Shown here: in pieces, positions 23,253-27,476 of the stretch
How the letters are laid out: every line of letters begins with the position of its first letter
Position numbering within the stretch: the first letter of the stretch is position 1
Source of the DNA: Paramecium tetraurelia
Taxonomy: Eukaryota
Length of the DNA stretch: 46,751 nucleotides
Assembly (NCBI GenBank): GCA_000165425.1
Contig: CT868028.1
Coordinates: forward strand, 62,001-108,751
Reading direction: 5' to 3'
Notes under the pieces: model-generated
Databases searched by the model: none
What the model saw: only the letters and a program-made list of their open reading frames with translations
Told to the model about the DNA's origin: nothing
Made by a program: the position numbers and the translations under genes

Positions 23253-23623
23253 TCATTTCTTGAATATATTGGCATCTTTGGAACAAAAAATTAGGAAATG
23301 GACCTTTCCTTCTTCTTTATGAATCGTACTTTGTCGAGTTATATAAAATTCAACTATAAAATATTCAATTATTATAGATTAAATATTGTCATGTAAAAAA
23401 GGTCATGTCAATAAGTTTCTCATGGTCTTTTGGCTTGGTTTCTTACTGAATTTATTAATTTAGGTTAATTAGAACCTGGAAGTTTGATTGAAGGGGTCAT
23501 CGGTGAATCTAAACCATCATTCTTATCCCACATCTCATAAGAAATGGATTTATTAGATCCATCAAGATTTTTTTGGCTGAGTTCAATAGATCTTTATGAC
23601 TTTCTCTCCATTGCTGATTGCAT
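23253..23623 (-). pseudogene. short hypothetical gene or remnant with a broken frame
   Basis: ATG at 23623 (MQSAMERKSQRSIELSQKNLDGS...) reaches TGA early; coding-like sequence continues in another frame. Confidence 0.35.
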
Positions 23624-23739
23624 AAATTTATTGTTTAAGATATTGAAAGAACTCATAAACTTTAAAACAATTATTAAAAAATTATATATTATTTTATATA
23701 ACATCTGCAACTACTCATTAATATTAATCATAACATTAG

Positions 23740-23887
23740 TATTACTTGATAAATATTAATTGAGAATCATATATGATAATATAACCCTTTGTTTTTTTTC
23801 TAAAATTTAAGTTTATTTTAGAATATAGAAAAGCTACTTTAATCATACAATCTTTATAAATATTAAGATAAATTTAACATAAAATCA
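23740..23887. repeat. duplicated Rab 3' flank, copy 1 (pairs with about 25207-25364)
   Basis: Shared blocks AAAATTTAAGTTTATTTT, AAAAGCTACTTTA, CATACAATCTTTATAAATATT, AAAATCAGCA. Confidence 0.85.
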
Positions 23888-25087
23888 GCAATTACAAGAT
23901 AGGCTTTAATTTCTATTTTCGATTTGTACTGTTTTTTGATTACTTTGAATTTGTTGTTTTTCGTTTAACTTAAGAAATTGCTCCAGAACATAATTTATTG
24001 GATCTTCTAGAGGATTGTCATATCTAGCTGACGTTTCATAGAATTTCAATTTTAGATCTTAAGCCAATTATTATCCTTCTGTTGAACTTACTTATCTACT
24101 AGAGTTTAAATCGATTTTATTTCCAATAAGTACATTTATTGTATTGCGTGATGCTGATTTTTTGGCCAAATTTATCCATTTAATTATTCCCTAAAAAGTA
24201 TCCTTTGATGTGATATTATAGATGAAAAAAACACTGTTAGCATTATTACAATGTGGTTAAACGATTGGCATAAATGCCTCTTAACCTGAAGTATCCCAAA
24301 GAATTATCTTTAACTTTTTTCCCTAAAATTCAACAATTTTATCATAACAGTCAACCCCAATGGTTGGTGTTGTTGAAATTATAGTTTAGAAACAGTATTT
24401 CTAATAGAGTGAACTCTTACCAATTCCATTATCTCCAAGCAAAATAATTTTTAATATCTGATCAAACTACTTAGTCTTTTTATTTAACATCGGTACTATT
24501 TAATTTGACAAGGCAACATTAATTTGATTCTTTTAAATATTTTATTTTTATTCCAATTCCTTTTACTTAAGAAATTGCTCCAGAACATAATTTATTGGAT
24601 CTTCTAGAATTCTGTCCTGGAGAACTGAGGTTTCAAAGAATTCAAGGCGATTTTCTTAAGCGAATTATTTTCCTTTATCATAACTTACCTTTCTATTACT
24701 GTTTAAATCTATTTTATTTCCAATCAGTATTTTTATTACATCAGGTGATGCTAATTATTCGACATCATTCAACAACCTAAGCACTTCCTCAAAGGGTTTT
24801 TAGTTTGTGATGTCATAGAAGAAAAAAAAACAGTTAGCATTCTTAAATTAAGTTTAATTGATAGACCTATATCTCTCTTAACCAGCAGTATCCCAAATTT
24901 ATATACGAATCATTTTTCCCTAATACCCAACAGATTTATATTTGAAATCCACCCCAATAGTTGTTTATGAAGGGTCAAATTTTCCTGTTACATATTTTAA
25001 GAGGAGCGTAGTCTTTCCAGTATCAGTATCGCCAAGGAATAGAATTTTTATTTAATGTTGAAATTTCTCTTACTCTATTTTCTACAT
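23885..25087 (-). CDS. tandem double-Rab GTPase (two Rab domains in one 400-aa ORF, C-terminal CXC)
   Basis: 1203 nt with no TGA and no intron. Domain 1: GDTDTGKT, TIGVDF, WDTAGQERY, GNKID, FETSV. Domain 2: GDNGIGKS, TIGVDC, WDTSGQEAF, GNKID, YETSAR; ends SCNC-TGA. Confidence 0.88.
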
Positions 25088-25206
25088 CTTTTCATAATTA
25101 AAGAAAATTTTTCTGAAATTTAAAGATAGAAATAAATAGTAATAGAATTTCATATAATTTCATTTAAAAATTAAACATCATTATTAAATTCCTTTAAAAT
25201 ATAATA

Positions 25207-25364
25207 TTATTACTACATGATAAATATTGAATGAGAATTTTATCAATTAATATAATTCCTTTGTATTATTAACTAAAAATTTAAGTTTATTTTGAAATAT
25301 ATAAAAGCTACTTTAGAATTCATACAATCTTTATAAATATTTATGTAAATTTATTACAAAATCA
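25207..25364. repeat. duplicated Rab 3' flank, copy 2
   Basis: Same blocks as 23740-23887 in the same order. Confidence 0.85.
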
Positions 25365-25988
25365 GCATTTACAAGACTGATTTTAATTGATATTTTCAAT
25401 TTATACTATTTAATTTGATAAGGCAAGATTGTTTTCAATAATTTAGTTTTATTCTGATTCCTTTTACTTAAGAAATTGTTCTAGAACATAATATATTGGA
25501 TCTTCTAGATTCCTGTTCCCGAAAGCAGACAATTCAAAGAATTCAAGGTCATTTTCTAAAGCAAATAATTTTCCTTCATCAAAACTTACTTGTCTCTTAT
25601 TAATTAAATCGCTTTTATTTCCAATGAGAACTTTGATTAAATCAGAAGGTGCTAATTATTTGGCTTCATTCATCCATTAATATACTCTCTCAAAAGATTG
25701 CTTGTTTGTGATATCATAGATGAAAAAAATAGAGTTCGCTTTTCTATAATAATTTTGACTTATTGATCGAAATGTCTCTTAACCTGCAGTATCCCAAAGT
25801 TATAGTTTAATCATTTTTCTCTAATATTCAACAAATTTATTGTGAAATTCAATCCCAATAGTTGGAGATAAATTTTAACAAAATTATTATTCTGCATGTT
25901 TCATGAAGAGTGTAGTCTTACCACTTCCAGAATCACCAACCAATACAATTCTTAATAAATACTCAAATTCTATTTATTTTTCAGTCAT
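25362..25988 (-). CDS. Rab-family small GTPase (single domain, intronless)
   Basis: LVGDSGSGKT, PTIGIEF, LWDTAGQETFRSI, IGNKSD, FELSA, C-terminal SCKC-TGA; 627 nt. Confidence 0.94.
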
Positions 25989-26173
25989 TTTTAATAATTA
26001 GAATTTATAATTTTCTTAAAACACACTTTGAGAGCGTTGATGACAGAAATAAACAGTTTGTTGAATTTTGAAATAATTGCATTTAAAAATAAAACATCAT
26101 AAATCTTAGTAATCTACAATTAATGGGATGATTATTACTTAAAAATATATATATATCTAAATTTTAATAATTA

Positions 26174-27476
26174 TCAATTCATTTAACTTGAAGCAAAATA
26201 AGCACTTAAGTTTCTCTATCTTTAAAATTAACTACTCTATCTTTTGCTTTGATTACTATCAAGATATTTTCTAAGTTATATTAATGATATACTGTTATTT
26301 AAGTCTATTGTGATCAACAAATATGCCTGGAACAATTCCAACATTTAATGCTTCATTGTTGTAATAGTTTTAATTAATTTTCATTTCAATAGCACTCATT
26401 GATTAATCTCTTTTTTTTTTGGTTTATTGTTCTTCAATTTGCATTATCAAATCTTATCGATACTATTTTTACTTCTCTACCTTCCTATACAGATCATCCT
26501 AATCCTTTCTCTTGTATTGCTCATTCACAACTCCATAATACTCCAATTCCTATGATTTCTATTATTATTCTCGCTCTTTCCATTGTCGCTTGTATTCGAT
26601 TTAGTCCATGATAGAATTATAGGTTTCTTTGTTTTTCTTTTGTCTGATAGCTCTCTCTATAATTTATCTTTGCTCATCCTGTTGTCTCTTCTATTCAGCC
26701 GCCTCCTTTATTATTTTATTCTCCATTTCACTTTTTTCTCTTTCTTTTTGTATATAGATTTAATTATATCTTTCCAACAATCCTTCATTTTGATGATAGT
26801 TCTGTTTTAATTTATTCAAGAACTAATATAAATAGTGAAGTAATACATTTCGTCTTTGTTCCTCATCCTATTGTAGTTTATTGAGTTCTTCTTACATGCT
26901 TTACTTTTCAAATAACTTTGTTTTAACCTGTTCAAATTTTTTCTTATCTTCCATGTCTTTGTAGGATTAATTTAACTCATAAATAACTTTGTTTTTTTTA
27001 TTTTATTTTTCAATTAGTTCTTCCTTAAAAATTTATTAATTTCTAAACATTTGTTCGCTAATCTATTGTTTTTCATTTAAATTCTATTGCTTTTAAAGCA
27101 CCCTCTTAATTTCTTACTATTCCAAACTATATTTAGCGAATTCAGCCTCCTTTTATTTCAATTATTGGTATTTCTGAAATTATTCAATGTCTTGCCTCTA
27201 CAAACTTTGTTATACTTAATCTGTATATTGGTTAGTATCAAAGCTTTCTGAGTTCTTTTTTTTCCTTTCCTGCATTGCAGTTTGAAGTTCTTGTCTACAT
27301 ACGATTTCTATATTAAGTTACCTGTATTGCAATTTGCGTTGATAGTCCTCGTATTTTAGTAATTGTTATTGCTAATCAGACTGAGAATTTTGCTATTGGA
27401 TTAATCTGCTCCATTCTCCTGTGGGATCTAAGAATTGTTAATATATATTATTACTATTATTGCAATATTTATTCAT
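26174..27476 (-). CDS. Q/E-rich coiled-coil hypothetical protein
   Basis: Code-6 frame MNKYCNNSNNIYQQFLDPTGEWSRLIQQQN..., tiny introns, TGA at 26174-26176. Confidence 0.75.

Follow-up and report, generated by a model that had tools for sequence, protein, structure and literature searches.

Rabs are almost always single-domain switches, and the locus described here raises the question of what two neighbouring Rab genes have become once they share a single reading frame: a protein with two working switches, one with a single meaningful switch, or a gene on its way out. The window, by which we mean the whole analysed stretch of 46,751 nucleotides from Paramecium tetraurelia (contig CT868028.1), has its Rab array embedded in AT-rich ciliate macronuclear DNA whose genes are readable only under the ciliate code (table 6), and its other genes are ordinary ones, among them kinases, a kinesin, ribosomal protein L4, a cyclin and an ion channel.

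The fused frame and the array around it

On the minus strand, positions 23885-25087 translate under table 6 as a single frame of 400 codons followed by TGA, with zero internal stops, and this is the uninterrupted, intron-free frame with two full sets of G1-G5 motifs that the original prediction had claimed. A TGA-free frame of 400 codons has a probability of ~0.0003 from base composition, and the other five frames of the same interval contain 4-15 TGAs. Pfam PF00071 (Ras family) matches two stretches of the fusion protein (E = 1.6e-87, 291.6 bits vs. a cut-off of 21.6), and our own Rab HMM places its two domains at residues 5-192 and 205-392. Both domains, hereafter head 1 and head 2, are complete from G1 to G5 by the usual patterns (G1 GxxxxGK[ST], a Thr for G2, G3 DxxGQ, G4 NKxD and an SA-type G5). 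Head 1 carries G19DTDTGKT, TIGVDF, D66TAGQ, N124KID and E152TSV, with Val in place of Ala in G5, and head 2 carries G218DNGIGKS, TIGVDC, D265TSGQ, N323KID and E351TSA, together with a C-terminal C398NC. The differing sequences that the original prediction gave for the two heads (DTAGQ/ETSV vs. DTSGQ/ETSA) were seen as well.

The strand carries three tandem units of one Rab-like gene, A (25362-25988), B (24491-25087) and C (23885-24490), and the fusion is made of the last two. The features of the array are as follows.

25362-25988, minus strand: unit A, an ordinary single Rab of 208 aa ending in SCKC and TGA (ORF; PF00071, E = 2e-51; 200/208 identical to P. octaurelia CAD8207140.1)
25088-25361, minus strand: 274-nt spacer, the 3' flank of A and 5' flank of B (DNA alignment; repeat families D2 and D4)
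23885-25087, minus strand: fusion ORF, 400 codons and TGA, encoding protein P0001 (exact sequence equal to a public gene model)
24575-25087, minus strand: head 1 G domain, residues 1-171, the former unit B, G1-G5 complete (motifs; Pfam; AlphaFold pLDDT >90)
24491-24574, minus strand: linker, the former hypervariable tail of B, residues 172-199, ending in SNQIVP (tail alignment with A, P. primaurelia and P. pentaurelia)
24488-24493, minus strand: junction, CCG (Pro199) followed directly by ATG (Met200, the old start of C) (sequence; alignment)
23888-24490, minus strand: head 2, residues 200-400, the former unit C, G1-G5 complete, with diverged switch II (EAFMPIVQPHCNNAN), its own tail and CNC
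23888-23896, minus strand: CNC, the sole prenylation-type Cys motif of the fusion protein (sequence)
23740-23884, minus strand: 3' flank of C, homologous to the 3' flank of A (alignment; repeat families)

At 24491/24490 the protein reads ALSNQIVP up to residue 199 and MLNKK from residue 200, and the stretch of unit A that matches this linker is its tail, ending ALSNQIVQIENINQNQSCKC. The linker therefore matches, as predicted, the tail of the neighbouring Rab and runs into the Met at 24490, but the statement that it stops just before the CXC was too tight, the tail of unit B being cut 12 residues short of the full tail end and 9 residues ahead of the CXC. The repeat finder and the DNA alignment give direct-repeat spacings of 901 nt from A to B and 597 nt from B to C, which leaves a shortfall of ~304 nt between B and C. 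It corresponds to the last ~12 codons and the stop of B, the ~274-nt spacer and everything upstream of the ATG of C, and in the DNA alignment the spacer at 25088-25361 has no counterpart between B and C. Alignment and repeat spacing thus confirm the earlier proposal that a deletion between tandem Rab genes produced one ORF with a single C-terminal CXC. Since all three units are colinear with Rabs in the alignment, an intron is unnecessary. In P. primaurelia and P. pentaurelia, whose Rabs here are single, SNQIVP likewise stands at the place of the junction, which indicates that the Pro codon is probably ancestral, with the cut falling exactly between this codon and the former ATG of C.

The 3' flanks of A (25215-25361) and C (23740-23884) are ~79% identical (114/144) over ~150 nt, and the duplicated block of ~900 nt therefore included the flank. 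These flanks are also less diverged than the coding synonymous sites (pS 0.34), a likeness that hints at constrained 3'-end or promoter signals in the very short spacers and is suggestive of either gene conversion or constraint.

The origin of the fused gene can be read from this anatomy. It began as one Rab gene, from a Rab1/Rab8-like family specific to Paramecium, which was tandemly duplicated to give three units of ~900 nt, and a deletion of ~304 nt then took the ~12 last codons and the stop of the second unit, the spacer and the entire 5' flank of the third, joining Pro199 directly and in frame to the start Met of the third unit. The predicted product, of ~46 kDa, would consist of two G domains, each followed by a tail, the first tail being flexible and ~30 residues long and the second ending in CNC. 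A bolder and speculative variant is that the germline micronucleus still contains the missing ~304 nt, to be eliminated each time a somatic nucleus forms, in which case the genes would be fused only in the soma.

The predicted structure fits two beads on a string. AlphaFold2, run with 33 aligned two-domain sequences, gave pLDDT >90 for both G domains, <50 for the connector at residues 190-205 and a pTM of 0.54 for the fusion protein, so that a fixed mutual orientation of the heads is not predicted. The solved chains nearest to head 1 are Ypt1, Rab10, Rab8A and Rab1A (E = 5e-38), and those nearest to head 2 belong to the same Ypt1/Rab1/Rab8/Rab10/Sec4 group (E = 1e-32).

Inheritance, age and expression of the fusion

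Tandem repeats collapse easily, and the original prediction had itself named an assembly collapse among the findings that would refute it. The P. octaurelia protein CAD8207138.1 (410 aa; P0002) is 69% identical to the fusion protein over its whole length and, in the independent assembly of another species, shows the same SNQIVPM junction. The fusion is therefore inherited and older than the species split, and no assembly artefact. The units are 67-74% identical as DNA, too different to collapse, and this together with the P. octaurelia junction rules out the collapse; moreover, 12 sequencing runs contain 0.98-0.99 of the words sampled from 23600-26100, a measure of word content and not of alignment. 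We consider it very likely that the fusion ORF is real and inherited, and scarcely credible that it reflects a collapse or a gene-model artefact.

The orthologue of unit A in P. octaurelia is CAD8207140.1 (96% identical). Its accession number and that of the fused protein are two apart, and in the window merely a 274-nt spacer separates the two genes; hence, one further P. octaurelia gene model may exist between or beside them.

The age of the fusion could be bracketed from its relatives. Among the best matches of a search limited to shorter proteins, P. primaurelia and P. pentaurelia have only single relatives of 208 aa, and the same matches include no single-domain copy of B or C from any species. 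In the maximum-likelihood tree, A, B, C and the P. primaurelia/P. pentaurelia sequences form four well-supported clades, although the tree does not settle the order in which these branch. Synonymous divergence among the paralogous units of the window is dS 0.45-0.52, and the genome-wide medians are 0.214 between P. tetraurelia and P. octaurelia and 0.60-0.61 between P. tetraurelia and P. pentaurelia or P. primaurelia, the latter 0.609 (PMC8354472, S6 Table). As the divergence of the units lies between 0.214 and 0.609, these distances date the duplications and the fusion to after the split from the P. primaurelia group and before that from P. octaurelia. Of the species represented by proteins in the database, this one pair of siblings is alone in having the fusion.

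Expression was followed in three oligo-dT runs of raw reads (X21, X22 and X23) over 23400-26200, with 33-42% of each run sampled, and in the contigs of an RNA library (X10). The three runs placed 22, 34 and 22 reads, respectively, on 23400-26200. X21 had a depth of 1.0-1.5 in five bins between 24528 and 25091 and X23 a depth of 0.6-1.8 in 24810-24997, X22 had zero on the fusion gene in the sampled part of the run, and with 22-34 reads per run, all three had zero depth over 23682-24527, which covers head 2 and the junction. The X10 pieces lie at 24058-24253, 24596-24766, 24812-25049 and 25497-25946, that is on head 1, head 2 and unit A, with 24254-24595 bare, the spacers empty and both heads at similar depth. 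No read or contig in X10, X21, X22 or X23 spans the fusion junction, and these data list neither joints nor transcript starts or ends, the read numbers being very small. Where reads exist, first mates lie on the plus strand, as would be expected of minus-strand genes in a stranded library of the usual type. The fusion gene is lowly expressed in the runs examined. Just downstream of it, the depth in X21 and X23 peaks (at up to 7) in 23400-23681 on the minus strand, within an ORF at 23420-23770 that has no Pfam match; X22 has a depth there about level with that on unit A, and first mates are again on the plus strand.

These data bear on whether head 2 might be expressed separately as an ordinary single Rab, through Met200 and a start site in the linker or in the head-1 coding region. 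Both species retain Met200, where translation of unit C once started, and the few oligo-dT reads are confined to head 1, the last bin reached being 24528-24621, with zero on head 2. However, the former 5' flank of the third unit is entirely gone, with CCG standing directly before ATG, head 1 would be left with neither stop codon nor anchor, and the X10 contigs cover both heads at similar depth between empty spacers, on tiny read numbers either way. Two separate products are very unlikely in our judgement, and we infer a single transcript and a single protein.

Unequal constraint on the two heads

The three units have diverged very differently between the window species and P. octaurelia, as listed below; the rough omega values were obtained from protein distances with 2.39 non-synonymous sites per codon and the genome-wide median dS of 0.214.

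Unit A, window vs. P. octaurelia: 200/208 identical (96%); tree path 0.041; rough omega 0.08
Unit B (head 1), window vs. P. octaurelia: 148/199 identical (74%); tree path 0.35; rough omega 0.58
Unit C (head 2), window vs. P. octaurelia: 120/196 identical (61%); tree path 0.71; rough omega 0.96

Head 2 is the fastest-evolving unit, with an about neutral amino-acid rate between the two species. In relative-rate tests with P. primaurelia as outgroup, unique changes numbered 10 in A vs. 52 in C (p = 1e-7), 16 in B vs. 41 in C (p = 9e-4) and 22 in A vs. 37 in B (p = 0.05), and the picture was unchanged with P. pentaurelia as outgroup. Within the window, the paralogue dN/dS values are 0.59 (A-B), 0.90 (A-C) and 0.83 (B-C). 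The changes in head 2 are unevenly spread: residues 1-110, with the P-loop surroundings, switch I, interswitch and switch II, are identical at 60/105 positions (57%), compared with 52/65 (80%) for residues 111-175, with G4, G5 and the last helix (Fisher p = 0.003), and the tail is identical at 9/26 (35%). An omega near 1 for head 2 can be a mixture of constraint and positive selection.

The motifs themselves have also changed in P. octaurelia. In the gene model of that species, Asn replaces the switch-I Thr of head 2 and DTSGQ is lost from it through an in-frame gap of 5 residues, head 1 reads DSAGLE (Leu at the catalytic Gln, Q->L) and GSKID (Ser at the Asn of NKxD, N->S), and the C-terminus is GCC vs. 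CNC in the window protein. These motif changes, the 5-aa gap and the longer tail are those of the P. octaurelia gene model. Paramecium introns are ~20-35 nt long, and the 15-nt gap in head 2 is shorter than that.

The original prediction saw in the two heads two working switches that might bind two effectors or act as an intramolecular cascade, and in its strongest form this would be a true two-switch protein in which both heads work on different effectors from one lipid anchor, the fast change in head 2 meaning that its effector surface diversifies adaptively. In the window protein, the G1-G5 sets of both heads are complete and their folds confidently predicted, the frame is open in two species, change in head 2 is fastest in the half with the two switches (60/105 identical), the part with G4, G5 and the last helix being retained (52/65), and paralogue dN/dS reaches 0.9. 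Yet head 2 of P. octaurelia lacks both the switch-I Thr and DxxGQ, head 1 there has the Q->L and N->S changes, and expression in the three oligo-dT runs is very low. The per-domain dN/dS that had been suggested as a check could be had in the rough form above and, against the two-switch idea, finds both heads much less constrained than the single Rab A. From the P. octaurelia motif losses and the about neutral rate of head 2, the two-switch design is not what selection conserves, being absent already in P. octaurelia, the nearest species known, and that part of the original prediction is not supported; we regard a true two-switch protein as unlikely.

A gene in decay would show much of the same pattern. 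The fusion would then have disabled redundant duplicates, and the ORF would be a young pseudogene that has yet to acquire a stop, as it easily could be in a code whose only stop is TGA. Such decay is in keeping with an omega of ~0.6 for head 1 and ~1 for head 2, with catalytic-motif changes in both P. octaurelia heads and with a depth of ~1-1.8 or zero in the polyA runs. On the other hand, 33 codons in B and 37 in C are one step from TGA, and the probability that neither lineage gained a new TGA in B or C after the split is ~0.007, counting nonsense mutations alone and leaving frameshifts uncounted (half of 0.214 changes per site per lineage, four domain-lineages). Zero out-of-frame indels separate the proteins, B having none at all and C in-frame ones only. 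Residues 111-175 of head 2 are 80% conserved vs. 57% for 1-110, and the terminal Cys motif is kept in both proteins, although the terminal Cys pair is not significant alone, with a roughly estimated P of ~0.3 under neutrality. Decay as the explanation is possible but rather doubtful, and the fusion gene is probably not just decaying.

On balance, we favour as somewhat the more probable reading that head 2 serves mainly as spacer and anchor carrier in a young, fast-evolving fusion gene that arose as modelled above. Head 1, which has no prenylation motif of its own, would reach the membrane only if translation passes through head 2 to the terminal Cys motif. Because head 1 would depend on that motif, selection would keep head 2 in frame, free of stops and foldable. 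The parts kept in head 2 would be G1, G4, G5 and the last helix, and its switch half would be unprotected, free to drift or diversify, and already dead in P. octaurelia. Head 2 would then be on the way to a pseudo-GTPase, and on head 1, still Rab-like, the constraint would be relaxed. That head 1 depends on the anchor and that head 2 acts as a spacer are deduced from these patterns, and together they would explain why the frame and the fold half of head 2 are kept, why its switch half and tail evolve about neutrally, why head 2 is dead in P. octaurelia and why head 1 is loose. As judged from its sequence, the window protein has G1-G5 intact in both heads, so that head 2 may still bind and hydrolyse GTP in P. 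tetraurelia.

In the window species, a working two-headed Rab would place a canonical-looking head ~200 residues off the membrane on a still GTP-competent head 2 whose switch surface positive selection is diversifying, a reading to which we give a low probability. If it were true, one prenylated molecule would read two nucleotide states, and P. octaurelia would represent the other outcome, a head 2 arrested as a pseudo-GTPase.

Two local patterns in the units are of separate interest. With unit A as outgroup, head 1 has 27 unique changes in the window lineage vs. 11 in P. octaurelia (p = 0.009), and around switch II the P. octaurelia head 1 is the more similar to unit A; this would follow from a faster rate in the window lineage or from conversion of unit B by unit A in P. 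octaurelia. In addition, the ~44 nt encoding LEDPINYVLEQFLK (24030-24075 in C and 24627-24672 in B, minus strand) are the same in B and C, synonymous positions included, with 3 differences in unit A and an overall inter-unit dS of ~0.5. Local gene conversion or a nucleotide-level constraint could account for this identity.

Relation to known GTPases and meaning of the locus

The features of the Ras superfamily (the PF00071 profile, and G1-G5 in each head) are present in the fusion protein, and the closest known systems are the members of the Rab1/Ypt1-Rab8/Rab10/Sec4 group, with which it shares these features and a CXC end after a hypervariable tail. The whole protein has the Rab-type double-Cys end after such a tail, as CNC with predicted prenylation, whereas head 1 alone is without it. 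Unlike that group, the fusion has two G domains per chain for one prenylation motif, its head 2 has a switch II (EAFMPIVQPHCNNAN) off the usual Rab pattern, and its family is seen only in Paramecium and is fast-evolving. RabF patterns reportedly lie around switch I, the interswitch and switch II, and are said to go back to Pereira-Leal and Seabra. By eye, head 1 keeps the RabF-like text IGVDF, RIQIW, RYRSIN and FFYDIT, with QFKNAN replacing the YYRGA-like motif, and head 2 reads IGVDC, KIILW, AFMPIV, HCNNAN and FIYNIT, its switch II motifs being clearly diverged. Five "RabFs" are named in the Paramecium Rab survey (PMC5391186).

Several proteins outside this group combine similar elements. Miro has two GTPase domains per chain and a C-terminal membrane anchor (PMC4810086), but this ancient, conserved protein is anchored by a transmembrane helix and has its domains separated by two EF-hand pairs. 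In the fusion, by contrast, the linker is an old Rab tail of 28 residues, the anchor is a prenyl motif, and the distribution covers two sibling species only; Pfam, with 9 families at E <= 0.001, finds neither an EF-hand nor any further domain in it, and its C-terminus is polar and ends in CNC, so the defining features of Miro are lacking. The bacterial EngA/Der likewise has two consecutive G domains (PMC4245960), but it belongs to the TrmE-Era-EngA class, contains a KH domain, acts in ribosome assembly and has an origin that is not homologous to the Paramecium duplication. Pfam finds no KH domain in the fusion protein, its best families being Ras, Roc and Arf, and the defining features of EngA/Der are thus lacking too. 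The large Rabs (Rab44, Rab45 and Rab46/CRACR2A) have extra N-terminal parts ahead of a C-terminal Rab domain with a prenyl motif (PMC8303950), but these parts are EF-hand and coiled-coil domains and not a second Rab domain. Pairs with a pseudo-GTPase offer another likeness, since P. octaurelia head 2 is without G2 and G3 and keeps the fold-defining parts, an active-looking head standing beside a dead one. In contrast, head 2 of the window protein keeps all motifs, and the origin is a recent tandem duplication: the loss of residues required for GTP binding or hydrolysis in head 2 (Thr->Asn, DTSGQ gone) is present in P. octaurelia and absent in the window protein.

The two-Rab architecture itself is not unique, as predicted proteins with several Rabs are not rare in databases. 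With our own Rab HMM, 2-4 near-complete Rab-like domains were found in 61 of the 150 best representatives of 50%-identity clusters, the query included, and multiple Rab domains in 19 of the 120 near-length matches listed, from rotifers, Tulasnella, aphids, a clam and plants. Among the matches listed, all such proteins except the P. octaurelia orthologue are at most 38% identical to the fusion, and they are unnamed or uncharacterised gene models, a good part of which may have arisen by merging adjacent genes. A tandem Rab-Rab protein is undescribed in the full-text literature searched. The Paramecium Rab survey (PMC5391186) does not mention a double Rab in the passages and supplements searched, although its Rab list could name the fusion gene as misannotated.

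What is new from this locus is a datable origin, an orthologous copy and the parent gene next door. It represents a dated natural experiment in which the parent gene, the fusion and the orthologous fusion of a sister species can all be compared. With a G domain placed in mid-chain, one head has lost its anchor and would depend on the other, and the other has lost the constraint on its switch, and the locus therefore bears on the origin of pseudo-GTPases and of proteins with several G domains. It also carries a caution, in that a complete G1-G5 set in one genome is no proof of a working switch. Its practical importance is modest, with two sibling species, low expression and a gene that is already an uncharacterised public gene model.

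Adjoining the Rab array, at 26259-27476 on the minus strand, lies a Q/E/K-rich coiled-coil ORF of 405 aa. Neither its exact sequence nor a syntenic orthologue is among the database matches, and since the exact sequence was not returned, the gene model in public databases is probably not the same as the plain ORF. The gene was considered as a calibrator of species distance and rejected, the matches being paralogues and the orthologue missing. Its best matches are trichohyalin-plectin-homology proteins on other contigs of P. octaurelia, P. pentaurelia and P. tetraurelia, at 78-80% identity, and these are probably paralogues from whole-genome duplication.
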